The translations under genes and the position numbers were made by a program. Positions 22,402-59,651 of a stretch of DNA of 61,386 bases are shown here, piece after piece. Under the pieces are notes generated by a model. That model saw only the letters and a list, made by a program, of their open reading frames with translations. It did not search any database and had not been told where the DNA came from. Positions within the stretch are counted from its first letter, which is position 1; every line of letters begins with the position of its first letter. This DNA is from a virus (taxonomy: Duplodnaviria; Caudoviricetes), in the IMG/VR virus record IMGVR_UViG_3300017724_000002, positions 1 through 61,386 of that record; one strand, 5' to 3'.

Positions 22402-23103
22402 TTAAACCCACTGCTTGCGCAAATCTTTTAGCCGTCTTGCGATTGTTCTTCCGACACCCTTTATTTTCATCAAATCTTTTTGCGTGGTTTTGGATTTTAA
22501 TAACTCCGATAACGAACCATATTTCTTCATAATTTCAATGGCTATCGGTTCTGTTATACCTTGTATTGCACAAAGCGCACGCAATCTTGGGTCATCGGGA
22601 GGTTGGTTCTTCGGTATGGGTTTGAATTTACTACGCATTGCGCTATTCATGTTCAGAATAGCAAGCCATTCAACAAACTCATCCATGTCGCTAAACTCGA
22701 TTAGGCGCACTTTTGGGAATTGAGAGTATAATGTCATCTTAAATGATTTGATTATTCTTTGTTGGCGCAGAACCTCTCTCGCTACTTCCTGTCTTTTGGC
22801 TTTGCGCCCCTTGAAGTATGGTTTTAGCGTCGTATTATAGACTGCAAGTATTGGATATTCGACCGCTTCACATAACTCGGCCAATTGGTGTTTGACTGTG
22901 CGCCCGTTGCGCCCGATACCAAGAATGCTACGGTATAAATCGTTTATCTCTTTGGCTTCTATTCCGTAGTCACCTATAATGTAGTCGCCAGTGCGCAGTC
23001 TTTTAACGACACATTGCCCTTTCGGGTCTGTTTTACGATTACCCACTTTGACAAATAAACGGTGAAGGAGTTTTTCATTTTCCCTGTCGTCAGCAGTTAT
23101 CAT
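22402..23103 (-). CDS. XPF/ERCC4-type structure-specific nuclease with HhH2 domain (resolvase-like)
   Basis: DDRE...LRTGDYIIGDYGIEAKEINDLYRSI catalytic core; two HhH motifs (IQGIT, IKGVG). Confidence 0.85.
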   Translation of the reverse strand: MITADDRENEKLLHRLFVKVGNRKTDPKGQCVVKRLRTGDYIIGDYGIEAKEINDLYRSILGIGRNGRTVKHQLAELCEAVEYPILAVYNTTLKPYFKGRKAKRQEVAREVLRQQRIIKSFKMTLYSQFPKVRLIEFSDMDEFVEWLAILNMNSAMRSKFKPIPKNQPPDDPRLRALCAIQGITEPIAIEIMKKYGSLSELLKSKTTQKDLMKIKGVGRTIARRLKDLRKQWV

Positions 23104-37437: not shown

Positions 37438-38156
37438 CAGTCAACGACCTCCCAATCTGCATCTTCAACGACGACATGACTTGGCGATTTCATTGCGCCA
37501 ATGCGCATTTCTATCTGATTCAACAGTTTAGGTTCGTTGCGCAATGTATCGACAAGTATTCCCATAACCCCATTAACTTGCTGATGCGCAAGTAGCATTT
37601 GAGAATCAACACCAATCTCTTTCTTGAGCGTACCAATCAACTTAATGTTCGTGTTCGCCTGCGCAACAAGACGGGTGGCAGTGGATAACCATTCTGCATC
37701 AATACCGTCTTTTGACTTCTGCGCCTCCCACTCATCGAGCCATCTTGTTATGCGTGAAAATACATCCTCGGCCATATCCAATGTGCTAATCGCTTCACTG
37801 CGAGCCTTTTCAACAGTTTGCGCTTCTTCGGGGTCATAGTCCATGTGCGCAGTCATGTGTTCTTCGACAATGCCTGCTTCCCAGTTATTCTTTGCTTCGA
37901 GATAAGCAGTGGTGATTGCACCATTAAAAATCTGTATTTCCCAATCCCGCCTATCCTTATGTGCGCATAAAGGACATTCGGGGGATTCAAGAACCCACTT
38001 CAAAGCCTCTATTGTAATTGGGTCATCTTCATGCCCAAGTCTTTGTTCAACCAACCATTTACTCTTCATCATTCCCACCTTCATATTCATAAAAGAAAAA
38101 GTTTGTCTTGTAATTACTATGGTGTAAATCTTGTGTATTACCCATGAAAGAACCAA
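37437..38156 (-). CDS. Zn-finger/HTH + coiled-coil DNA-binding protein (start ~38070)
   Basis: CPLCAH..R...EEHMTAH, then helical coiled coil; architecture reminiscent of small-terminase-like proteins. Confidence 0.5.
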   Translation of the reverse strand: MVLSWVIHKIYTIVITRQTFSFMNMKVGMMKSKWLVEQRLGHEDDPITIEALKWVLESPECPLCAHKDRRDWEIQIFNGAITTAYLEAKNNWEAGIVEEHMTAHMDYDPEEAQTVEKARSEAISTLDMAEDVFSRITRWLDEWEAQKSKDGIDAEWLSTATRLVAQANTNIKLIGTLKKEIGVDSQMLLAHQQVNGVMGILVDTLRNEPKLLNQIEMRIGAMKSPSHVVVEDADWEVVD

Positions 38157-38382
38157 ACCTCTTATCCTTTTTCAATTTCTGCGCCGCACTGTTTGCGTTT
38201 GGTGGCGAATGCCTATCGTCGGGCAAATTTTCTATCAGCCAGTTAGCGGTTCTCGACTCCCCACTCACACGCAACAATTCTGCCGCCCTGTCAAGCCATT
38301 TACCATAACGCCTTCTGCGCATATTAGGAGGGTTGGGTTTACTGTGCCTCAAACTTTCACTTCCTTTTCTGCCAAGCCCCAA
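38059..38382 (-). CDS. Putative winged-helix protein
   Basis: AAELLRVSGESRTANWL...NSAAQKLKKDKRF. Confidence 0.5.
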   Translation of the reverse strand: MGLGRKGSESLRHSKPNPPNMRRRRYGKWLDRAAELLRVSGESRTANWLIENLPDDRHSPPNANSAAQKLKKDKRFGSFMGNTQDLHHSNYKTNFFFYEYEGGNDEE

Positions 38383-38630
38383 ACTCCGTCACCTAAATGC
38401 TTGAATCTCTTTTCTGTGTCATTAATTAGCGCAAAATACATTGCTTTGTGAATTGGTATTCCGCAACGCAGTTTTGTTCCTTTCTTCGTTGACGCACCGG
38501 CCACTAAATCTTTCTTGTGCATTGCGCCTCTTTCTTTGAGCAAACGCTCGCAAGAGTCAAGAAACGGTTTGTATTTTGCAACATTCCCTGTTCTGCTACT
38601 TCTATAATGTACTATCTTATTCCTTTTCAT
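38349..38630 (-). CDS. Putative winged-helix (HARE-HTH-like) protein
   Basis: LLKERGAMHKKDLV...MYFAL...RFKHLGDGVWGL. Confidence 0.55.
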   Translation of the reverse strand: MKRNKIVHYRSSRTGNVAKYKPFLDSCERLLKERGAMHKKDLVAGASTKKGTKLRCGIPIHKAMYFALINDTEKRFKHLGDGVWGLAEKEVKV

Positions 38631-47944: not shown

Positions 47945-49485
47945 TCATTCTTCTTCGCCTCCGTTGTTCAATGCTACCATCACCTGCTCAAAAAGGTCAT
48001 GGTCTGAAATGGTGGTTTCTGATTGTTTGCAAGTGCATGCACCTTCGCCAAACCCTTCTATGAAGGAACGGAATTGACATTCGTTAAATGGCGCAAGCAT
48101 AAGCATTTCTGCAAACAACATGAGCAAACCTTCGGTTTCTGCGCTCTTGCCTAAGTCAGACATGAAAGACGCTCTCGCCGTCTGAACATCGGGCAGTAAG
48201 TCCAATGCTCTTTGTTTAGACCATTGCATATGCGCCATTCGGCAGTTACCAGTGCAAACCGGCTCATCTGCGCATATATGCGTGTTGAAGGCTTCGCCTC
48301 GCACACTCAGCGCAGGGGCAGGCTCTTGCACATAGTCAAAAATTGAGGTTTGAATATTGGCAGGGGGTGCGGGATTATTTTTGGAGGGTGAGCAACCCGC
48401 CGCCCCGACTGCCTTTTTGAATGCAAATTCCATGAATGACGCATACGCCCATAGGACTGCGCCAATGATTAATATACCGAGAATGACATTCATTTCAAAT
48501 CGACTCCCATGAAATTTCATCTTGCTCGACCTTCTTAAAAAGAAGCCATGTTCCTTCCATGCGCTTGACCCAGTAGCCATGCCCCTTTATCTCCGCTTTG
48601 CGTGTGCGCCATTCATCCCAAAAGGTTTCGTTGCAATTGCCATACCATGTTGTGCGCTTTTTGCTCATCTTCATTTCGATGCCGAAAATCTCAAACCTTG
48701 TATAAACAGGGCGTGGTTCGGGGTGAACCTCTAATTCTGCGCCGTCAAGCCACTTCGCCAATTTTTCTTGAGCGAAGACTGTCGCTTTAGCGATTGCATC
48801 CTCTTCTTTGTGCGCAAGATTCTGAACAAATTGGCAATAGTGGGAGGTTGCGCCGTCAGATTTGGTGGACTTTACCTCAAGGTAAAGGGTATAAAATTGC
48901 TCTTTCTCGCCCGTTCTGCATACATGAAGAATACCGTCACGGCGCACTGTTTTTAGTGTGGATTGACCTTTGGCAGTGAAGGTGTTAGGGTGGACTGCGC
49001 TCATTGCTCATCAACCTCCGCCTTAAGTGCGCACAATTCATCAATCATTTCTTGCAATTTTCTTTGAATTGTTCCAAAGTGAACGCTCATCTTCTCCAAA
49101 TCGCTCATAGAAATTGTTTCATCTGAAAAGTGGCGGCGATTGTTAAGACAATCCCAGTGGAAATCAACGCCTTCCTCATAGTCATGCGCCTTATCCCTCG
49201 CCTCTCTTAGCATTTTTATCATGCCGTTTATTTTGTTGCTCATTCTTGTGCGCCCCCTGCAATGATTACCTTTTCACCGATTTTGACCTCAAAGAACATC
49301 GGGATAAGACCGACTTCAACGGTTTGGGTCAACAACCATTCAGAAAATAATTCTTCTGAATTGATTTCAGATGGCATAACGGCCACCATAAAACCGATTT
49401 CATTTGTTTCGCAGTGCATCGTTTTCGCAGTGAAAACGGGTACTACATCAGCAGGCTCAATATTGGGGTTCTGTGCTTCCTCCAT
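47945..49485 (-). CDS. Cluster of early hypothetical ORFs (47945-~48520 with TM, 48495-49004, 49001-49243, 49240-49485)
   Basis: Coupled ORFs downstream of the TATA box at 49509-49519; ATG 49485 is leaderless-spaced. Confidence 0.55.
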
Positions 49486-49508
49486 GCTATACCCTACCCA
49501 TTCAAGGG

Positions 49509-49519
49509 ATATAAACCCC
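49509..49519 (-). promoter_or_regulatory. Archaeal TATA box GGGGTTTATAT
   Basis: 24 nt upstream of ATG 49485. Confidence 0.7.
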
Positions 49520-49987
49520 ATACCCAAAATGCACCACCTGCCCCACATTATGCGAGTAATTAATTTAATGCGTATGCCTGCATGTGCCTGCATGTGCCTC
49601 ATGTGTGTATGTGCATGTATGTGCGTGGGTGCAGGCTCGGCGGGAAGGCAAAATTTTTCTTAGAGTTTCATTGCGCATATAGGCAGGGATAACCGCAGGA
49701 ATTTGCGCCGAACATTGTTCAGAACGACGCACTGCTCTCAAGTCCTTCGAGGTTTTCGGTATGGCTTGCGCTCAATCCGAATCAATCAGAATTTTTGCGG
49801 ATTTGCAAAAACCAAAAACTGCGCAAAATGCGCAGATTCAAAAAAAATAAAAAAAATCGCCCCGTTGGGTCGCAGTGGGCTGAATTGACACGGGGCGCAC
49901 ATCAATTCTTGAGCCGTTTTGTTTGTTTTTCAATCCTCCTTTTTTGTTTTTTTATTCGTTCTTTAGCCTTTCAGTCTGTCGTTTTGC

Positions 49988-51022
49988 TCAGTTTTTCTTT
50001 GCTTTGATTTTGAGCAAAGTCTTAACCACTGCGTCAACTGCTTTCTTCAATTCATGCTTTTTGTCGTTACTTCTAGGAATGCACTCAACAACATCGAAGT
50101 GGTCGCAGTGCATCATTTCTGCGGCTTTTTCTGCTAATTCGTAGGGCAAATTTTCTGAGCAACCCGAGCCGCTAGACCTTCGCCCGGTCAAAACCTTGCT
50201 CGCAGTACCCCGAAAGCCAAAGCCAACGGTTCTAAAAGCCCATGCACTCATGGCACTTGCCGCCTGCTCAAGATTTAGCGGCGCAGTTGCCGACTTTACC
50301 TTGATTATTGCGCAACCCGATTTATCACCGTTCACGACGGTTGAATAGGCCACTGAGTAGATTTCAACACATTGACCTTGAGCCTCAAGGATTTGCGCCG
50401 CCGCCATAGTTGCCGCCATTCTGAACATCATTATATCGGCATTAATGCCTCCTAGTGCATTGATTGGAACGAATAACCCGATAGTTTCCCGCTTGATTCT
50501 TCTCTTTCTTTTGTTTCTGAAAATATTTTCATCACCGTTGAGCAGTGCGTCGATTGAGAAGCCAATCATTTTTCGAGGTTCGGCTTGCATTTTGCGCAGT
50601 GAAACCACGATTTCAGAAGTAAAATTTTCTAAACCTTTGAATGCGTTTTTCGATACACTGCGAGCCTTTTCAGCGTCGGGTTTCCATGCTCGGCCTTGAT
50701 GTGCTTCATCAATAATATCTGAAACTGTGCCGGTTCTACCATACCATCGTTGGTTATTGCCCGGGTCATCCATAAGTACGGCGCAGTCATGCTTTTCAAT
50801 GCTTCTAACTGCGGCACTCATCGAAGGGGCAACGCCAATTTCACATATCCCGCCGGAATATTTGACCTCAGCATATACGACACCTTCGCCGTCTGTCTTT
50901 TTCTTGTTAAATTTAGCCATATTTTTCACCTCCATAGTTTGAGATTTTGCGCCATTAGTCGGGAGTCTTTCGAGTCCGTCATTCAGTGGCGCAGTACCCC
51001 GATTATGCGCCTCCTGCGACAT
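49988..51022 (-). CDS. vWA-like partner of MoxR ATPase (start probably ~50921)
   Basis: IGLFVPINALGG...AAAQILEAQGQCVEIY...IKVKSATAPLN...AFRTVGF; directly downstream of the AAA gene. Confidence 0.65.
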   Translation of the reverse strand: MSQEAHNRGTAPLNDGLERLPTNGAKSQTMEVKNMAKFNKKKTDGEGVVYAEVKYSGGICEIGVAPSMSAAVRSIEKHDCAVLMDDPGNNQRWYGRTGTVSDIIDEAHQGRAWKPDAEKARSVSKNAFKGLENFTSEIVVSLRKMQAEPRKMIGFSIDALLNGDENIFRNKRKRRIKRETIGLFVPINALGGINADIMMFRMAATMAAAQILEAQGQCVEIYSVAYSTVVNGDKSGCAIIKVKSATAPLNLEQAASAMSAWAFRTVGFGFRGTASKVLTGRRSSGSGCSENLPYELAEKAAEMMHCDHFDVVECIPRSNDKKHELKKAVDAVVKTLLKIKAKKN

Positions 51023-53222
51023 TCAATTGGCCGTCGTATACCGACTGCGGAATCATTGCGCACTCAATTAAATCTGAGCCGTCACCCTTGCCAACTGAGA
51101 AGTGATTCGCTATACTGCGAGCCATTTCCTCATCAACAGTTTGCGCCCACCTTGCAATAATTGCGTTCAAAGTCCAACCATTGCGAGCCATTGCGAGGCC
51201 ATGACTCAAGGCACGATATGAGAACGAAACGCTAGACTGCGCCGTTAATTCGCAAACTTTTTCATATGCCTCAAACAACTGCTCAGATGATGCCGGCTCG
51301 CCGGAATCGCTACACTCAACCTCTTTTGGCGCACTTTTCAAACCACACATACCGGCCATAATACGGACACTGCGGCGATAATGAACGACGCAAGCACTGA
51401 AACGGTCAACCAATGACTTATCCTGTTTTTGCGCCGCCACATATGCCGGTGAATAACTTAGCCCGGTCGTATTTCCTGCGGCGATTATGAAGCAATTTTT
51501 ATGCATCTGATGAACCTTCCCGGTTGCCGGGTCAACAATTGACTTATTGGCTAGAACTCCGTTTAAAACGGTCATAACGGCGTTATCTCCCTTGTCTATC
51601 TCATCAACAAAAGCAAGGCCACCCTCAAGTATTGCCTTAACTAGACCCGATTTATTCCAAGTCGTTGCGCCTTGCATCATGTTGTAATTTTTGCCGCCTA
51701 GTAGTTGGCTTGCTTCCATATCAGCAAAACATATGACCTCGCCATAATTTGCGTGTTGTTTTTTGGTTATTTCCCCGGCTTCAAGTAGCATGTCGTTGAT
51801 AGTTTTGACACAGAATGACTTCCCTATCCCGGCATCACCATTGAGCCAAACGGGCAACGGATAGCCGTTATCTGTCCTTGAAGTTATGATATTATACACG
51901 GTTGGCACTTGGGGATGATATAGACCCGTAATTTTGACAGGTTTTGACTTCTTGGATTTTTGAACCATCAACGGCGCAATCGGTTGACTGCTCTCTATTT
52001 TTTCGATTAATTCATCATATTTTGCGTCGATTTTTTGGTCTGTGTGGTTGATTTGGTCGTTTAATCTCAAATAGTCATTATTGGCTCTAGGTACAACGGT
52101 TGAAGCATCGAAATGTTCAACAATTTTCCAAACAATGTTTTGAACTGCGCTCTCATCAATTTGAGCATTTGCGCCGCCTAAATTTCCATCAAGTAAATCA
52201 ACAATTTGCGCCGCAATGACCTCTTTTGACTTTGGCTCATGCTTCAAATTATGTGTTGATTTTGTGCCGTTCAAGTCAATAGTCAACTTTTTGGTTGGTT
52301 CTTTTGTCGGTTCTGATGTTCTCAATTTCATTTTTGGATGGTACGCAGTCTGCGTTTTAGGTGGGGTTGGAACTGTCGTTGGTACTGTCGGCACTGTCTG
52401 AGAATTTCCGCCTAGAATTTCATTGATATAGTAGGCATTTTCAACGGCGCAACCGTAGCAGTGCGGCTTATTTTGTGCATAGTTTGGAGATGGTAGCATG
52501 ACCTTATACTCGCCTGTTTGAATTTCACAATGACAGTCAACGCAAGAAGTTGAGTTTTTGGAGTGCTTTCTTGCTCTCCATGCCCCTTTTACATTGCGGC
52601 CAAACTGCTCATACTCGACGGGCATTTTAGACCTAGCCATCAGACCAACGCCAAACAGACCACTGCTCAACAATTTAGGCATAAATAGCCATGCAATACC
52701 AAAAGAAAGTATCACAATACTCACGCTAAACACAACACTGCGAGCCAATAGCCAAACTTCCCCGGGAGGATTTTCTGATAAATAGCCTTCATCAATGTTA
52801 CAATCAGCGCATAGACCGTTATCAAATAGCGGCTCAGTGGTGCTTTCAACCACTAGACAGACCGGGCAAATATCCCAATCTTCAACCTCTTTAACCTCAG
52901 ATAGCGGCGCAGTGTCCGTTTTAGGTTGGTTTACTAGAGAAGAAAAGAATCTTCTCAAGAGTGCGCCCCTAAGATTTTGTCGCTTTGAGGCTAATTCTAA
53001 ACGGTGGACTGCTCGCTTAAACGAGTGTCTAGTAGGTAGCATTTGAGATGGTGTGATTATCAGACCATCGGCGGCGCAGTTTGTTGTTTCATATTCGGAT
53101 GACTCAGCGTTAGAGTCCTTGCTTATCATTTCATAGTCAACGGCGCAGGGTGCTAAAAAGACCACTGCGACCATCAACAACGCATTTATTATGCTTGTTT
53201 TAGTTTGCATTTTGCTCACCAT
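51003..53222 (-). CDS. MoxR/CbbQ-type AAA+ ATPase with long N-terminal TM and Zn-finger extension
   Basis: VWLNGDAGIGKS, LVKAILEGGLAFVDEIDK, HKNCFIIAAGNT, DKSLVDRF; start 53222 lies ~22 nt downstream of a TATA box. Confidence 0.85.
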   Translation of the reverse strand: MVSKMQTKTSIINALLMVAVVFLAPCAVDYEMISKDSNAESSEYETTNCAADGLIITPSQMLPTRHSFKRAVHRLELASKRQNLRGALLRRFFSSLVNQPKTDTAPLSEVKEVEDWDICPVCLVVESTTEPLFDNGLCADCNIDEGYLSENPPGEVWLLARSVVFSVSIVILSFGIAWLFMPKLLSSGLFGVGLMARSKMPVEYEQFGRNVKGAWRARKHSKNSTSCVDCHCEIQTGEYKVMLPSPNYAQNKPHCYGCAVENAYYINEILGGNSQTVPTVPTTVPTPPKTQTAYHPKMKLRTSEPTKEPTKKLTIDLNGTKSTHNLKHEPKSKEVIAAQIVDLLDGNLGGANAQIDESAVQNIVWKIVEHFDASTVVPRANNDYLRLNDQINHTDQKIDAKYDELIEKIESSQPIAPLMVQKSKKSKPVKITGLYHPQVPTVYNIITSRTDNGYPLPVWLNGDAGIGKSFCVKTINDMLLEAGEITKKQHANYGEVICFADMEASQLLGGKNYNMMQGATTWNKSGLVKAILEGGLAFVDEIDKGDNAVMTVLNGVLANKSIVDPATGKVHQMHKNCFIIAAGNTTGLSYSPAYVAAQKQDKSLVDRFSACVVHYRRSVRIMAGMCGLKSAPKEVECSDSGEPASSEQLFEAYEKVCELTAQSSVSFSYRALSHGLAMARNGWTLNAIIARWAQTVDEEMARSIANHFSVGKGDGSDLIECAMIPQSVYDGQLNVAGGA

Positions 53223-53243
53223 TCTGTCGTTAGTCCTTAGAGG

Positions 53244-53254
53244 ATATAAACCCC
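53244..53254 (-). promoter_or_regulatory. Archaeal TATA box GGGGTTTATAT
   Basis: ~22 nt upstream of ATG 53222, next to the first array motif. Confidence 0.7.
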
Positions 53255-53268
53255 AAACATCAGACCAA

Positions 53269-54798
53269 AAAACCGTTGTACTGAAAGCCAATAGGCTCGC
53301 AGTGTGCCTTGAGTCAAAGAGGGGTTTGATTGATATACTAAACCTTGACGCACCCCGGTTTTGATTTTCACTCAGCGCAGTTTCAAAACAGGCTTGCAGT
53401 ACATCGTTTATGGCTCAGTACGGCGTTTTGAAAAATGAAAAATCAAAATCAGCGCAGTTTGAAAATTAATAGCGGCGCAGTCTATCATTTAGAAATTGCG
53501 CAGGCTTTCAGTATAACGGTTTAGTCGAGCAGGCTTTCAGTCTATCGTTTAGGTTAATGCGCCGATTTCAAACAGGCTTTCAGTATAGCGTTTTTCTCTT
53601 ATAGATTCTGAAAATGGTCGGGTTGAAGACCGGACACTAAAACGACCAAAATAGGCTCTCAGTCTATCATTTAGAGTCAACGACGCAGAATTATTAATTG
53701 GCTCGCAGTCTATCGTTTAGGGATTTCGGCAATTCCCCGGGTTTCTAAACGGCGCACTGCTAAGGTGTAGTTTTTGCACCGATGGTAAAATAGCGGCGCA
53801 GTCTATCGTTTAGGGTGTTTTATCTGATTCCAAAGTGATTTGCAAAACTCCCGAAACCGGAAATTGACGGCGTAGGCTCTCAGTCTATCGGTTTCAATCG
53901 GTAAAGGGGCAACGGCGCACTATTGAACCATTGGTTAACTAGCGGCGACATAGCCAAAATGGCCGCAGGCTCTCAGTATATCGTTTATGTCCGGTCAAAA
54001 CAGGCCGACATGGGGCTTTCGGTCTAGCAGTCTATCGTTTAGACGCAGTGCATCGTTTAGGGTTTGCTCAGAACCCCCCCTCCGCTTCGCAGTCTATCGT
54101 TTAGAGAGGGAAATTTTGACCCATTTACCGGAAAACGGCAATTCAAAATAAAAACGCAGTACAACGGTTTTAACTTTTGAAATAGAAAACTGAGCAAAAC
54201 GATGATGCAGGAAGGCGAGATATGAACACTGCGAGCCTGTTTTTTGGCGCAAAATTACCTCAAACAAAATTAAAACCGTTGCACTGAAAAAGTCAGAAAA
54301 GCCTCATTTCATCCATTTTGCTCAATTTCCATAAATGCGCAGTTTGAAACCGTAAAACGGTAAATATGGTATTCTTATTTCAATTAATATGTTCACAAAC
54401 CGGAAAGGGTGGGGCGCAGTCTATCGGTTTTCAATCCCCGGGAGTCAATTGTCTGATGTTTGATAATTGGAAAAATGCGACGCAGTACAACGGTTATGGG
54501 GTGGGTAGGCTCTCAGTGATGCGTTTTTGGTTTTTGCTCAAAATGTCTAACAATAGCAAATAAGAGCAAATTTCCATCTGAAACAAGTCCGACGCACACC
54601 GTTTAACCTCAGTGGATTTTATTTCAATTTGCGCAGAAAAATGAAAGACAGGCTCTCAGTGTGTCGTTTTTGATTAGTTTTTGGCTCAATTTTTAGTGTC
54701 GATATGCTCAAAATATCAGAAAATCGTTATTAATTATTAATTTTTGATTTATTTTGACTTCTCAGATGAGCAAAACAGGCTCTCAGTGCATCGTTTAG
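53269..54798. repeat. Non-coding array of ~25 degenerate ~22-bp motifs (consensus ~YAGGCTYKCAGTNYATCGTTTAG)
   Basis: e.g. 53530 CAGGCTTTCAGTCTATCGTTTAG, 53652, 53699, 53791, 53966, 54088, 54776; ~4 inverted copies (53269, 53745, 54227, 54272). Confidence 0.9.
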
Positions 54799-54922
54799 GA
54801 AAATCAAACGGCGCAAAAAAATATGCTCTAAAATGCGCCAAAAACTGCGCATACTGGCGGCGGCTTACACGCCAACCACCGCAAAAAATTAGCCGTATTT
54901 TTCTGAAATTGGGCTTATAAAC

Positions 54923-56413
54923 CTAAAAAAACGGTACAAACCTTTTATTTCTTGAAATTCTTTTTGTTTTTTTGCCAGCAGACCACTTTGACGCATCTAA
55001 TGACCCTCCTATGACTGCTAAACCAGTGTTTTGTGACGACTTTACTTGGTCTATGGCGTGTGCAAGAGCCATTACGGTATCATTATGCTTGCCTTTGTCC
55101 GTTATATCGCCGTTTTTCCATACATGCGACTCTAACTCGTCAAGTAGTATGCTCATAACACGCCTTGTTTCGTCATTTCCGTATGGTATAATGACTTTTT
55201 CTTGTTCAAACCATACTCTAAGGCGATTTAGCAAGCCTTGCTTGAGTGTTTTATTAGATACCTTGCTCATTTTAAGATTTAGAGTAAGACCCTTTTGGTT
55301 AATAAGTGATTGATACAAAGACTGAAAACCTGCGCTTTCAAATGCAAATACTGGGTGCTTGTATGCGTCATCGAAGTCTTTAATCACTTTAATTTGTTTG
55401 GCAGGAGGGAAATCGTTGCGTCGCCACAAATTGACTATGTGAACATTGCCATCTTTGTCTTGTCTAACTACAATTGCAACGGTATAGTCTTGTCCGATAC
55501 CATGTGAAGGGTCAAAACCTACAATATAGTCGCCTTCATGCAATTTTTGCTTTTGCAATATTCTATCCATGTCAAGATTTTTACGAGTAAGTGTTTGTGG
55601 GAATACTGCGCTATCATCATCGACAACCATACAAAGATACTCTTGCGCAAATGCTAACTCGCCAATAGCCTCTCTTTGTTCAAGTAAAAACTCAAGAGGT
55701 CGTTCATCAGCCCAAAGACAGACAGGTTTAATGTCGGGGTCATTGCGCCATTCATCATAGTTAACAATTGCACCTTTTTGCCATGTTTCCCATGCGTCAT
55801 TACCTAACATTTCAGTATGATAAAGGTCATTCATGCTCATAGGTGTGCCAACACAAAACAAACTGGTTTTAGGTGATAGCATAGGGGTAAGTTTTTTTCT
55901 GAACCACTGCTGATATACTTCATAGGACATATCATTTTGGTCGTCAATAATGTCATCAAGAGCAATTGCGGCGGGGTGTTCACCACGAATACCCGAACCA
56001 ACCGATGTAGCCTTAATCCATGCACCATTTGTTAGACGAAGTTCAAATCTGTTACCTTTTGTTAAATCAACCTTTTTAGATAATTCGGGGTGTCTTTTAA
56101 GGTCTTGGCGTATTTCTTCTAAACGATTCATAGCAAGGTCTTTATTTGCTGAAAATAACCAAATAGTAAAAGGTTTGCCACGCCACTTTTCAAAAAGTAA
56201 CATATGTAATAACTTTACACGAAGCGTTGTGGACTTAGAATGGTCACGGGGCGCAATAATACAAACACGGTGAACCTGCTTTCCTTTATTGTTTCCATAT
56301 AAGTCAAGCCATGTTTGAATATGGTCGCCCCATTTATACCCAAGCCATTCATAAAAATGGCGTATGTCATATCTGCTACGCTCAAGATGAAAGGTTGTCA
56401 TTAAACGAACCAT
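54923..56413 (-). CDS. terL: Terminase large subunit
   Basis: APRDHSKS Walker A, GIRGEHP...LDDI Walker B, VGTP, FAQEY, nuclease GFDPS...DYT, HNDTVMALA. Confidence 0.95.
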   Translation of the reverse strand: MVRLMTTFHLERSRYDIRHFYEWLGYKWGDHIQTWLDLYGNNKGKQVHRVCIIAPRDHSKSTTLRVKLLHMLLFEKWRGKPFTIWLFSANKDLAMNRLEEIRQDLKRHPELSKKVDLTKGNRFELRLTNGAWIKATSVGSGIRGEHPAAIALDDIIDDQNDMSYEVYQQWFRKKLTPMLSPKTSLFCVGTPMSMNDLYHTEMLGNDAWETWQKGAIVNYDEWRNDPDIKPVCLWADERPLEFLLEQREAIGELAFAQEYLCMVVDDDSAVFPQTLTRKNLDMDRILQKQKLHEGDYIVGFDPSHGIGQDYTVAIVVRQDKDGNVHIVNLWRRNDFPPAKQIKVIKDFDDAYKHPVFAFESAGFQSLYQSLINQKGLTLNLKMSKVSNKTLKQGLLNRLRVWFEQEKVIIPYGNDETRRVMSILLDELESHVWKNGDITDKGKHNDTVMALAHAIDQVKSSQNTGLAVIGGSLDASKWSAGKKTKRISRNKRFVPFF

Positions 56414-56615
56414 CGTCACCACTCCTGTTAAAAATCGGGAAGCCGCAGTATTCAGCCAAAGCATACGCTAGCGACTCAACCTCGCTTCTTTCAAGCATTA
56501 TACCAACAACCATTTCTTCTGCAAACAAATTAAATGCAATATAATCCTCGCCCATATCGGCAATACGCAATTGTTTGTCGGGGCTAATCCATATGGGCAT
56601 CTGCTTTCCTTCCAT
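56382..56615 (-). CDS. Small hypothetical protein
   Basis: Coupled between phosphoesterase and terL. Confidence 0.5.
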   Translation of the reverse strand: MEGKQMPIWISPDKQLRIADMGEDYIAFNLFAEEMVVGIMLERSEVESLAYALAEYCGFPIFNRSGDDGSFNDNLSS

Positions 56616-57810
56616 TTAGTGTGTTTAATAATCTTAGTCCATGTCGAAGGTCTGTAAATGCCTGTATATCTCTTGTTTCTGAATCAAGAATAACCATAGG
56701 TGATGTTGGGCGTTCTCTTGGAAATCCGCACATTTCACCAAAACTGTCAATAGTCTTATATGCGCCGGGTCTTATTGCATAACGCTCGACTGCATGACGA
56801 GTAAATGGAACAACAGACGGTGTATGGTGGTGTCCTATAACTCCAATATCGAAATCACACTCTCCGTCATCCCACATTTTCTTAATTACACGGCTTGGGT
56901 CAAGGTTTGAATTGCCTCTTCGCTTGTGTCGAATACTAAGGTGATAAGGAACATCGCCGTGAATAACTTTGAGGTTTAACTCATACGGATGATACAAAAC
57001 TCCCCTGTCTTGAGCAAGACGCTTTAGTGGGTCATAATCTGTTGCACCGGCAGTCCAAAGGTCGTGATTACCTGCAACAATAGCCATAAGTGATGTTGGA
57101 GTCATGTTAATGTAGTGTTCACATAACTGCCACTGGATAGAAGGCGGAATTGGTGCTTTCATTGCAGGTCGTGGCTTGTCAATCATAAAGTTATCAATGT
57201 AGTCGCCTGCGTGTATAACATAACAATCGGGGTGTCCTTCAATTACTTCTGTGTCACGGCGTAGTCTTTCATGGTCGCAAAAAGGATTACCTATGTGTTG
57301 GTCACTTTGAAATGCAATTCCAATGTATCGTTGCTTAGACTTCATGTGAAAAACTGCCCAACGAGCATCTTCATTTGCAAGAATTGCCGCTTTTGAGCGT
57401 TCTTCTATAACATTCCATAGATTTTCACCTGTCGATGCAGACTTTTTCAAATGTTCAACAATAAAATGCGGTGTTTCTGTTTGTTTGACTGCTTTACGCT
57501 CATACGCACGCCTAACTCTATTATCCCAACCAGTCTTTGATATTTCGGGAAAACGCTTTGCCATAATCATTGCTAACTGATTCATGTTGCCGTCAAACTC
57601 CATTGGTATTTCTGCATTGTAGTCAACCACTTCAATACTTGGAAAAATGTCGGGTTCATGTTGTTTTAACATACGCAAACGCCAACGGTGCGATTCTGCT
57701 TCTATTTCGGGCATAATATTCGCCATGTGTCTTGAAAACTTAGCCATATTACCATCATAATGTTCTATCTCTTTTCGGACTGTATTAGTATAGTCGTCAT
57801 CACTGCTCAT
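56584..57810 (-). CDS. Calcineurin-like metallophosphoesterase with N-terminal helical repeats
   Basis: SDQHIG, AGDYIDN, AGNHD, GHHH motifs. Confidence 0.9.
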   Translation of the reverse strand: MSSDDDYTNTVRKEIEHYDGNMAKFSRHMANIMPEIEAESHRWRLRMLKQHEPDIFPSIEVVDYNAEIPMEFDGNMNQLAMIMAKRFPEISKTGWDNRVRRAYERKAVKQTETPHFIVEHLKKSASTGENLWNVIEERSKAAILANEDARWAVFHMKSKQRYIGIAFQSDQHIGNPFCDHERLRRDTEVIEGHPDCYVIHAGDYIDNFMIDKPRPAMKAPIPPSIQWQLCEHYINMTPTSLMAIVAGNHDLWTAGATDYDPLKRLAQDRGVLYHPYELNLKVIHGDVPYHLSIRHKRRGNSNLDPSRVIKKMWDDGECDFDIGVIGHHHTPSVVPFTRHAVERYAIRPGAYKTIDSFGEMCGFPRERPTSPMVILDSETRDIQAFTDLRHGLRLLNTLNGRKADAHMD

Positions 57811-58080: not shown

Positions 58081-58238
58081 CCAACCAACCAAAATCCACC
58101 ATATTACTTCAATAACTATCAAAGCAATGCCACCCTTTGTTATAATCTCCGCAATATCCATAAATCATACAGTCCTTGTCTGACTTTTTATTGTTTTTCG
58201 GGCATACCTTGATAAAGCAAGCATTCATAACACACAAC

Positions 58239-59651
58239 ATGGCTCGGATTCCTTTCTTTGGTGAAATCGGAAAAAAGAAGCAAACCGATGAACCGAAACC
58301 CATTATCTTCACAAATGATGAAATGAGATACAATGTCGGACACCGTTCTCCGTTTCAAATGATTGCAGGTTTAAGCGATATTGTTCAAGAAACAAATAAG
58401 TTAAGAGATGACTCAAATTTTAACAATGATTTTTATTTATTTGACGAAATGCTTAAACTTGACCCCGAATTGAACGGCGCAGTGCGTGCAGTGTCTTTAA
58501 CTGCAAATAACTACAACATAAATTGGCGTTCTGCAAAAAACTCTCGCATACGCAACGCCCTACAAGCCTTGATTAATAATATTGACTTTGATGACATACT
58601 AATCAATTCTATGCGCAACCTTATGGTTTATGGAAATGATGTAAATAAATTGGTTGGAACAAGCCGTGAAGGTATAACTGATGTGCAAAATTTACCCGTT
58701 GCGCAAATAACAATACTAGATGATAGAAATAGGACTGCGACGGCAGATGAAAATACCCCAGTTATTAGTGCGCAGAAATATTTTTTGCGTGAAGGTGAAA
58801 CAACCATGCAAGAATTTCCCGCAGATGAGGTTCTTCATGTACGCATGGATTACAGAAGCAATTGGTTCACAGACAATGAAAACCGAGTTACCTATGGTAT
58901 TTGGGGTGCTTCTCGATTTACTGCTTTAAAACAGGCTATCCGAGCAAAATATAACAGTATGAATAACAGAATTGCACTTGAAGATGCAATGACAAAGCAA
59001 TACATTACAATTGACATGGAAGCAGTTAAACACATACAGAACCCCGATGAGCAAAGAGAGCGTTTGCTTTTCATTATGAATCAAGTTATTAGCACAATGG
59101 AGTCATTAAGAGGCGACCAAGTGCCTATTTTCCCCGACTATGTAAAAATACAACACATAGACCAAAGGACTGCGTTGCCGGACAGTGGCGCATTCCTTGA
59201 CAATGTTAACGCAGATATTGCCGCAGTTTTGCAAGTACCAAGAACCGCCGCAGGTCAAGAGAAGGGTAGCACTTTTGCGGCATCATATACTGCAAACCTT
59301 TGGGCAAGCAATGCTATTCGACGCATACAAAGCATATTGCGACAGTCTGTAATGGAATTATTTTCTGCGCATTTAGATTTGTTAAAGATAAATCATGTAA
59401 AAACAGACTTGCCGGACTTAATCTTTGAACCTGTTGATGAAGAAACACGACTTGACAAAATGCGCAGGGCAACATTAGGTTATTCTAACGGAGTCCTTTC
59501 GCTAAATCAATCACTTGAAATCGTAGCATTGCCTATTGAAGAGGGAGGCGATGTGCGCAAAGATGCACCAGTAAGCACCGAAACACCCGACGAAGAACCC
59601 GTCGAAGAACGAGATGAAGATGACGACATGCCAAGAGAAGGTGAAATGTAG
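58239..59651 (+). CDS. Portal protein
   Basis: ~470 aa; DPELNGAVRAV, MRNLMVYGN, FPADEVLHVR, IWGASRF, IAAVLQVP, LPDLIFEP. ATG 58239 lies ~24 nt after a TATA-like TTGATAAA. Confidence 0.85.
   Translation: MARIPFFGEIGKKKQTDEPKPIIFTNDEMRYNVGHRSPFQMIAGLSDIVQETNKLRDDSNFNNDFYLFDEMLKLDPELNGAVRAVSLTANNYNINWRSAKNSRIRNALQALINNIDFDDILINSMRNLMVYGNDVNKLVGTSREGITDVQNLPVAQITILDDRNRTATADENTPVISAQKYFLREGETTMQEFPADEVLHVRMDYRSNWFTDNENRVTYGIWGASRFTALKQAIRAKYNSMNNRIALEDAMTKQYITIDMEAVKHIQNPDEQRERLLFIMNQVISTMESLRGDQVPIFPDYVKIQHIDQRTALPDSGAFLDNVNADIAAVLQVPRTAAGQEKGSTFAASYTANLWASNAIRRIQSILRQSVMELFSAHLDLLKINHVKTDLPDLIFEPVDEETRLDKMRRATLGYSNGVLSLNQSLEIVALPIEEGGDVRKDAPVSTETPDEEPVEERDEDDDMPREGEM

Follow-up and report, generated by a model that had tools for sequence, protein, structure and literature searches.

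What does a compact viral genome gain by giving 3% of its length to a stretch that holds copies of one short word and no gene? The question is raised by IMG/VR record IMGVR_UViG_3300017724_000002, whose 61,386 bases (in the following the window, meaning the whole of this stretch) represent a complete, circularly assembled genome of a tailed virus. Between terL, the gene for the large terminase subunit, and a gene for an AAA+ ATPase it carries an array of an asymmetric 22-bp word, and this region is a cis-acting DNA element under purifying selection. Each word is, judged from its sequence, the putative site of one sequence-specific DNA-binding protein. We consider it possible, with a rough probability of 0.4, that an operator-like site found throughout the virus family was amplified in one clade into a high-valency platform, which would serve as a sink for this protein, as a boundary or as both.

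The array and its word

The consensus, aGGCTcgCAGT-N4-CGTTTAG, is bipartite with two conserved blocks about one helical turn apart, and it ends in the T-rich TTTA followed by G or A; in a subtype of the copies GCGGCG replaces AGGCTC. Allowing at most one mismatch, CAGT-N4-CGTTT has 53 matches in the genome, compared to 16.09 +/- 3.9 in 100 dinucleotide-preserving shuffles, the largest of which gave 27, so that 0 of 100 reach 53. The sequence CAGTCTATCGTTTAG is present five times in forward and not once in reverse orientation, and it is absent from a control read backwards. A position weight matrix yielded 43 matches of at least 15 bits (strong copies) versus a mean of 0.27 in 30 shuffles and none in the reversed genome; since the matrix was trained on the array's own copies, the independent statistics weigh more. 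The strong copies are split into 22 in the gap between the two genes (53223-54922), five in 52641-53222, 11 in 49400-52640 and five in the other 55.7 kb, and their density is 12.9 per kb in the gap versus 0.06 per kb over 1-49399. In the gap 20 copies are on the plus strand and two on the minus strand; the gap copies run toward the 3´ end of terL and are thus antisense to both flanking genes. Within 52.65-54.92 kb the strong copies number about 27 and reach into the 5´ end of the ATPase gene.

No open reading frame (ORF) of at least 66 amino acids (aa) is present over 53292-54922 (1631 nt), and the next-largest such gap of the genome measures 298 nt, in agreement with an earlier note on this DNA that had called it the largest non-coding stretch. 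All 25 sites listed in that note hold the motif or its 5´ half: 22 of them score at least 15 bits, the ones at 54155 and 54272 reach 10.9 and 13.2 bits, and the site at 54227 comprises only the 5´ half, CAGGCTCGCAGTG, with 9.6 bits. The irregular spacing it described was found again, with distances of 18-327 nt. Its description of the borders was accurate for terL on the right; on the left the array does not begin at 53269, since the strong copies of 52641-53222 and 49400-52640 precede this position, and that the left-hand gene is an early one is conjecture. The parts of the array and its two neighbours are the following (bits are matrix scores).

51003-53222, minus strand: AAA+ ATPase gene (AAA_5; CobS/MoxR/midasin-like), left-hand neighbour of the array
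52641-53222: array continued into the ATPase gene at its 5´ end, with five strong copies (at least 15 bits) in mixed orientation (52740-, 52910+, 53011-, 53077+, 53167-)
53223-54922: array core, the ORF-free gap from the ATPase start codon to the terL stop, 22 copies of at least 15 bits and four weaker ones
53267-53316: head-to-head pair 53283-/53300+, the point at which the motif orientation flips, about 15 nt upstream of the TATA-like word of the ATPase gene
53389-53432, plus strand: copies 53389-53413 (26.6 bits) and 53408-53432 (18.8 bits)
53470-53597, plus strand: copies from 53470 (23.7 bits), 53501 (19.9 bits), 53530 (26.5 bits) and 53573 (23.9 bits), spaced 31, 29 and 43 nt
53652-53722, plus strand: copies from 53652 (24.5 bits) and 53698 (30.1 bits, the best copy: TTGGCTCGCAGTCTATCGTTTAGGG)
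53743-53767, minus strand: inverted copy (20.4 bits)
53791-53990, plus strand: copies from 53791 (28.2 bits), 53873 (24.2 bits) and 53966 (26.8 bits)
54020-54106, plus strand: copies from 54020 (22.1 bits), 54038 (20.8 bits) and 54082 (24.5 bits)
54149-54294: inverted pair of weak copies, 54157+ (10.9 bits) and 54286- (13.2 bits), a 21-bp stem around the island 54194-54251
54409-54530, plus strand: copies from 54409 (23.5 bits), 54475 (19.9 bits) and 54506 (23.3 bits)
54649-54800, plus strand: copies from 54649 (28.0 bits) and 54776 (29.5 bits), flanking the AT-rich 54701-54760; the latter is the last array copy and ends at 54800
54834-54922, minus strand: conserved terL-proximal island; GGTTTATA (54916-54923) directly adjoins the terL stop, with a T6 run and then a GAGGTGGTTGGCG ... 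TTTTTGGCGCA box behind it
54923-56464, minus strand: terL, with a Terminase_6C nuclease domain, right-hand neighbour of the array, whose copies point to its 3´ end at 54923

The commonest spacings are 29-32 nt (23 of 126) with a period-11 signal of R = 0.33, values that are pooled over relatives and not independent; this pattern hints at cooperative loading. Three intragenic copies, one of them with 14.6 bits, match the conserved ATPase peptides KRAVHRLE, ARSVVFS and LSSGLFG in two reading frames (frames assigned from the sequence), and thus the N-terminal extension of the ATPase and the array are intertwined.

An assembly artefact could be ruled out. In the population data, which are assembled contigs from 24 listed runs with depth summed over strains, the stretch is present in 22 listed runs from 11 studies (no RNA run is listed among them). 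A single 7844-nt contig of run X1, which may be the source sample, covers 49236-57079 with six differences, and contigs of X3 and X5 cover 53338-55286 and 53730-54874, respectively. Hidden small genes were ruled out as well: none of nine small ORFs (40-65 aa) is conserved, and five of the nine contain stops in L001, the closest relative. The region does not encode a tRNA or tmRNA that the searches could find, no Rfam family matches the array, and a structured non-coding RNA is not indicated, as 21 of 22 tiles of 150 nt had z values between -1.6 and +1.6. The only significantly folding tile, 54151-54300 (z -4.4 on the minus and -2.65 on the plus strand), corresponds to the inverted pair of motif copies. 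A CRISPR array or mini-array was rejected because of the spacing and because no Rfam CRISPR family matches the array. A sub-threshold match to CRISPR-DR8 is located inside terL (55279-55316, minus strand; 22.2 bits versus a gathering score of 39, E 0.16) and is most likely due to chance. A tandem satellite was rejected too, with Tandem Repeats Finder giving just three trivial runs of 7-9 nt. Sigma-70 promoters (4 versus 5.3 expected) and intrinsic hairpin terminators (4 versus 3.1 expected) are not in excess in the region.

Conservation in relatives and the operator reading

A related terL is encoded by 31 IMG/VR loci; the array is present in the loci with a terL identity of 80-96% that reach past terL and also in L039, L042 and L045 (76-77%). 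The nine array-bearing loci measured all contain 18-22 copies per gap, the majority of them pointing toward terL (12-20 versus 2-6), and the orientation flip seen at the head-to-head pair of the window recurs in L001, L004, L006, L012 and L031. Compared to L001, in which terL is 92.7% identical, 80.4% of the motif bases but only 71.3% of the spacer bases are identical (Fisher p = 5e-5), and CAGT and CG are retained at 91-95%. In relatives with a terL identity of 76-88%, the alignable remainder of the gap consists of motif copies and a few islands only, and no ORF in the gap is conserved. One of the islands of the window, 54194-54251, holds the half-site 54231- and is kept in L001, L004 and L012 (3 of 15 loci tested). 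The earlier note had allowed for a motif without conservation and for an assembly error; the motif is kept in the relatives while the spacers are not, and the X1 contig spans the array. Two blocks one helical turn apart, the polarity, the position-specific conservation and the spacings of 29-32 nt together argue for the reading as binding sites.

In contrast, all 14 loci with a terL identity of at most 75% are array-less and have 0-2 copies. L013-L017 carry one copy about 140 nt after terL, and L013, L015 and L016 have another one upstream of the nuclease gene, comparable to 57905- in the window; the array-less genomes G003 and G004 contain three copies and one copy, respectively. A further group with a terL identity of 58-61% has 3-10 motif copies per locus. 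Across the family the word is intergenic and promoter-proximal at 1-10 copies, with single copies that bracket the nuclease-terL operon among them. In the window, 57905- is directed at the nuclease-terL operon and 53283- at the ATPase gene, and a second small intergenic cluster is present:

49603-49987: copies 49734-, 49873+ and 49972+ and the weaker 49821-

Located 45-100 nt past the terL stop, the box GAGGTGGTTGGCG ...(~27 nt)... TTTTTGGCGCA (window 54834-54890) is kept in all relatives L001-L015; the array-less L014 and L015 have it as well, and there the interval is a perfect hairpin.

In eight loci, L089 (934-1027), L121, L124, L133, L140, L119, L139 and L148, the copies form a palindromic tetrad <-<-|->-> with a spacing of 32/29/32 nt, which in the four loci checked (L089/L121, L124, L133 and L140) is located directly upstream of a conserved gene for a protein of 466-641 aa. 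L089 has motif pairs upstream of the portal gene also, and all eight of its strong copies are upstream of, and co-directional with, an ORF. The protein encoded next to the tetrad matches no Pfam family and no PDB sequence, has three homologues in 5.8 billion proteins and gave a model with a pLDDT of 32.9, which is unusable; in the window no homologue of its gene was found (tblastn, E <= 1). A SAP-like helix pair in this protein was spotted by eye only, and a SAP regular expression had no match in the window proteins.

The word is present even in an unrelated virus that encodes a Dam methylase and a terminase of the gpA type and shares no detectable protein with the window. Its four copies (23.7-26.8 bits), three of them at 30-nt spacing, lie in an ORF-free, repeat-rich region of about 900 nt (L041 2300-3170, which is G001 ~950-1820), and its own terS-like gene is 4 kb away. 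This region contains further repeat families (GGTCTTATTCCCCGTG three times, GGTCGC runs and CTGTACAGG palindromes), and its word AACGGCGCA recurs in the array of the window. A scan of prokaryote genomes from 185,579 species, a narrow test with one pair pattern, returned 20 stretches that resemble coding tandem repeats, none of them with the AGGCT flank.

The distribution in the relatives is operator-like, and therefore we read the array as an amplified operator. The motif word would then be older than the array: an ancestral operator may have been located at a few intergenic, promoter-proximal sites, and in the clade of the window its multiplication would have filled the space from the late packaging operon to the next operon with a bank of about 20 sites that face one way. 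Such a bank could load many copies of the regulator and thereby act as a sink that buffers or times the concentration of free protein; it might also, or instead, separate two transcription units as a boundary or roadblock. The protein bound there would be encoded by the host or be a small viral one. Because the word is common to an unrelated virus its reader may be a host protein, and with a motif that occurs in a virus sharing no detectable protein, the putative binder appears not to be tied to the local genes. The neighbouring ATPase is probably not the binder.

Parallels are offered by the operator sets of phages and archaeal viruses and by decoy or titration loci such as datA of E. coli. 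As in these, the word recurs promoter-proximally at several operons (in distant relatives, and in part in the window), a palindromic multi-site unit (the tetrad of the relatives) is located in a divergent intergenic region, and extra sites would buffer a protein. Unlike in operator sets, the single site of the array is asymmetric, and about 20 co-oriented sites have no gene downstream. The viruses are abundant in marine viromes and nearly all of their genes are without annotation; the array provides a handle on viral control of replication, packaging or gene timing, and the 22-bp word could be used as bait for its protein. Should that protein come from the host, its motif would give a rare clue, readable from sequence, to the host's identity.

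Several points weigh against an amplified operator. Its operator part derives solely from the placement of the copies in the relatives, and about 20 sites with no gene to regulate go far beyond an ordinary operator, so that the role as sink or boundary is conjectural. Of the intergenic window copies outside the array, only about four of seven have the orientation of the next gene. An iteron origin would account equally well for the AT-rich patch between copies, the two opposed sets of sites and the asymmetry of the 22-bp word. The window lacks a homologue of the gene beside the tetrad, and the product of that gene therefore cannot be a regulator common to both clades; since the motif occurs in genomes that lack the small winged-helix candidates described below, these cannot explain it there.

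The neighbourhood of terL raises the possibility of a pac region, in which the words would bind the small terminase or another packaging protein and headful packaging would start here toward terL, portal and head genes. The array adjoins terL, its copies are aimed at terL and the structural genes, the copy about 140 nt after terL is kept in the array-less L013-L017, and the Terminase_6C nuclease domain is present. A circular assembly with an arbitrary start fits permuted, headful-packaged DNA. The first and last 123 bases of the window are identical, and this exact overlap is part of an ORF that extends over the join, from 60346 to 1494; it is thus a feature of the assembly, which leaves 61,263 unique bases and rules out a direct terminal repeat at the record ends. 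The circular assemblies of the relatives begin at differing places. A depth of 2-3.5x that of the flanks at 53.4-55.2 kb (X3, X5 and X7) is unusable as evidence for a terminal repeat, the depth being summed over strains with alternative flanks at loose ends. Physical DNA ends or coverage steps at the site do not appear in the contig listing, contigs being unsuited to show ends.

However, scanning with Pfam or PHROGs revealed no small terminase in the proteins covered, many small proteins being without any family match, and the only such signal was a weak terS-family cross-match on the HNH endonuclease. The word is not limited to one terminase lineage: its presence in a virus with an unrelated gpA-type terminase weakens a terminase-specific pac site, and in relatives copies are located upstream of unrelated genes. 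In the pac and cos regions of tailed viruses (cosB R sites of lambda, pacL/pacR of SPP1, pac hexamers of P1), repeated short words lie beside terminase genes as the putative protein-binding words do here; these regions use a handful of sites, however, and not about 27. We regard a pac region as improbable. What holds of the protein-loading platform proposed in the earlier note is a multi-copy, selectively maintained element at the DNA level, of a type that proteins load onto; the suggested genome end is weakened by the overlap inside an ORF and by the varied assembly starts, and the terminase-specific pac site by the gpA-type virus.

The gap is bordered by a word of a different kind, which looks, from its position, like a TATA-like promoter word:

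24335, 25834, 28113, 30043, 32553, 37035, 40965, 43991, 45330, 49517, 53252 and 54923, minus strand: copies of GGTTTATA
53245-53252, minus strand: GGTTTATA copy ahead of the ATPase gene, about 27 nt upstream of ATG 53222

The 12 copies of GGTTTATA on the minus strand stand against none on the plus strand (1.7 per strand expected); all are located in the 24-55 kb block, most of them 22-47 nt ahead of start codons. With one copy at the terL stop and one before the ATPase gene, the gap is bracketed by two such words. Genome G007 carries 11 on one strand, compared to 0-3 in the array-less G003 and G004.

The array itself might be a bank of promoters, its words being read by the host polymerase together with a viral factor, and the 20 co-oriented copies would then either sequester polymerase or start short transcripts, non-coding or antisense, that run into terL from its 3´ end. 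An asymmetric word of about 22 nt with the T-rich end TTTA and then G or A would suit this, as would the eight co-directional copies of L089, the two window copies aimed at the nuclease-terL operon and the ATPase gene, and the occurrence in unrelated viruses, as for a host-read promoter. Against it stand the following observations: neither an ORF nor a conserved RNA is found downstream of the 20 array copies, the virus has a different promoter-like word in GGTTTATA, no RNA polymerase gene was recognised among the scanned window proteins, sigma-70-type promoters are not in excess, and, as given above, only about four in seven intergenic window copies outside the array share the direction of the next gene. 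G003 and G004 have just three copies and one copy, and hence the word is no general promoter. A promoter bank thus appears very unlikely to us.

The AT-rich patch and the possibility of an origin

Between the last two strong copies lies 54701-54760, which with 82% AT is the most AT-rich 60-mer of the genome (tied). In five of nine array-bearing loci (the window, L001, L004, L006 and L012) the most AT-rich 60-mer of the gap is located 129-173 nt from terL; in several loci the AT content there is only 65-77%. An alternative explanation is an iteron-type origin or copy-control locus, in which the 22-bp words bind an initiator, 54701-54760 unwinds and surplus sites titrate or "handcuff" the initiator, as surplus sites do in incA of P1. 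The initiator could be a host protein, for instance Orc1/Cdc6 if the host is archaeal. The sites are asymmetric, bipartite and about 22 bp long, with two opposed sets adjoining at the start of a gene and 20 of the 22 gap copies on one strand; this speaks for an origin, and so do the AT-rich patch between strong copies and its position kept in five of nine loci. The motif in an unrelated virus would look as if a host initiator reads the word, the array is a mosaic breakpoint (see below), and no initiator gene was recognised, though the family-B DNA polymerase (PolB) and a clamp loader are encoded.

On the other hand, no Rep, Orc or MCM family was found among the window proteins scanned, and none adjoins the array; the neighbour is CobS/MoxR/midasin-like and no Rep-type protein, so that the ATPase as initiator is unsupported. 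The spacing is irregular and out of 22-bp register, the AT-richness is modest in four of the nine relatives, and the copies on either side of the patch point the same way. Cumulative GC skew, which tracks gene orientation, turns at about 22 kb and about 58-59 kb, away from the array, and with the single pattern tried no motif array was found in prokaryote genomes. Altogether, we hold an origin to be rather unlikely. A fork trap similar to Tus-Ter, a reading prompted by the two opposed groups of sites, was set aside because the skew and gene convergence put any terminus near 22 kb.

Plasmids and plasmid-prophages (P1 incC/incA, F, R6K and RK2) carry iteron arrays of 4-14 copies with asymmetric sites of about 19-22 bp. 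The array shares with iterons a multi-copy asymmetric site across two adjacent major grooves, opposed sets around a gene start and an inverted pair near a promoter, and surplus sites in iterons act as a titrating sink. It differs from them by its about 27 copies, by the spacing of 18-327 nt, by the lack of a Rep-type gene beside it and by the motif's occurrence at other, promoter-like positions of related genomes. Archaeal origin recognition boxes (ORB) form ORB/mini-ORB arrays of polar sites of about 13-36 bp beside orc1/cdc6; polar sites, many copies, opposed orientation and an AT-rich stretch are found here too, but there is no orc1/cdc6 neighbour and no visible dyad and G-string architecture, the copies at the AT patch are not inverted, and an archaeal host is unproven. 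The family of repeats in oriP of Epstein-Barr virus, a eukaryotic episome, has about 20 EBNA1 sites in regular 30-bp tandem units, which are palindromic. Like oriP, the array is a long non-coding viral stretch given to about 20 copies of one word; unlike there, its copies are interspersed and polar.

The leads to an archaeal host are weak. A nuclease of 233 aa with ERCC4 and HhH2 domains (window 22402-23103) is of the short XPF type, the Atlas neighbours of a 107-aa protein (38059-38382) come from Thermoplasmatota (score 0.88-0.89, a lead only), and the TATA-like promoter word is another such lead. The T4-like replication and nucleotide genes (clamp loader, dNMP kinase, endonuclease V-like) argue away from an archaeal host.

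Mosaicism, GCGCA saturation and neighbouring genes

From about ATG 53222/53207 on, the ATPase gene is a genuine ORF. Six relatives show conservation of its N-terminal part, which contains hydrophobic segments and four CxxC pairs. This N-terminal extension is clade-specific, about 370 residues being missing from the homologue of the array-less G003, which has the AAA+ part only (498 aa); the ORFs beside terL in L024 and L014 are unrelated to the ATPase. To the ATPases of relatives whose terL is 80-96% identical, the protein is only 25-36% identical. Loose contig ends recur at motif copies, at 53290 (three runs: X1, X3 and X7), 53572 (three), 54226 (three) and about 54797 (two). This contrast in identity and the recurrent junctions make the array a mosaic boundary and indicate that modules were swapped here.

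From this one might conclude that the array is a recombination substrate or a relic, that is, short homologies or the decayed remains of a gene which promote module exchange with no binding protein involved. The identity contrast and the contig ends at motif copies across samples would be in line with that. Plain homology, however, needs neither the 20/22 strand bias and the conservation of CAGT and CG nor the 32/29/32 tetrad of distant relatives, and the gene found at this place in distant relatives has left no trace in the window (tblastn, E <= 1). We give this explanation hardly any credence.

Contigs of X1, X3 and X7 join the array at exactly 53290 to another left flank of 108 nt, a 15-nt probe of which was absent from all loci searched. 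Low-depth contigs of X1 and X3 join 58059/58060 to 49345 via 30-31 other letters, which could reflect a rearranged relative or a small circle. The Mre11-like nuclease is 94% identical to that of L039, though terL is only 76% identical, which suggests that the nuclease-terL operon, which is also GCGCA-poor, was recently imported.

GCGCA occurs 601 times on both strands, versus 64 expected by base composition (about ninefold) and 137 +/- 17 in first-order Markov simulations; TGCGCA is found 168 times instead of 9.5 times (17.7-fold). All 433 genomic GCGC are in the context DGCGCA/TGCGCH, GCGCG is absent, and all codon frames are used. Genome-wide there are 9.8 GCGCA per kb; terL (3.9 per kb, six in 1.5 kb) and the nuclease gene (0.8 per kb, one in 1.2 kb) are poor in it. 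The excess is also present in G007 (L108-L111), L004, L006, L012, L031, L039, L042 and eight metagenome loci, while in array-less relatives and other viruses GCGCA is at 0.7-2.0-fold. Array and GCGCA excess go together in seven of seven array-bearing loci versus 0 of 5 others, in two of two versus 0 of 2 whole genomes and in eight of eight versus 0 of 27 metagenome loci; as the array-bearers are one clade, this may reflect a single evolutionary event. The excess is perhaps more surprising than the array, and a link between the two may or may not exist.

The array-word subtype aGCGGCGCAGT-N4-CGTTTAG contains GCGCA. If array and saturation formed one clade-specific "self-marking" or decoy system, a protein would read GCGCA-type words genome-wide, and the about 27 composite high-affinity sites would nucleate it or soak it up. 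This protein would be host-encoded (defence, chromatin or initiator) or would be the winged-helix-like pair encoded at 38059-38630, and the virus would need no enzyme to label its own DNA or to disarm a host protein. We consider such a system unlikely. The pair is flanked by the outlier motif copies 37800- and 38908+:

38059-38630, minus strand: clade-specific tandem pair of small basic proteins, 107 aa (38059-38382) and 93 aa (38349-38630), no more than candidate trans factors

A gene for the 93-aa protein is present in five of five array-bearing complete genomes and in none of two array-less ones; the model of this protein has a winged-helix-like topology (pLDDT 70.7) with weak fold matches (best E 0.03).

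The array, the saturation with GCGCA while other GCGC is avoided, and GGTTTATA co-occur in one clade and are absent from relatives that are syntenic gene for gene. These three signatures are a natural experiment in the rewriting of viral genome "grammar", possibly upon a host switch. Searches of full-text literature found no account of such an array or of the GCGCA excess.

Beyond the array the following genes were located:

56584-57810, minus strand: Mre11-like nuclease gene
58176-59651, plus strand: portal gene

Further recognised genes encode a tape-measure protein, PolB, the clamp loader, the dNMP kinase, the HNH endonuclease and the short ERCC4-HhH nuclease; most remaining window proteins had no family match in the scans, and an NCBIfam scan of ten of them gave nothing meaningful. 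Among cultured relatives terL matches 23 phage records, each with an identity below 60%, and therefore they provide no annotated model for this virus. Relatives of its PolB were found on many marine contigs of 60-70 kb.

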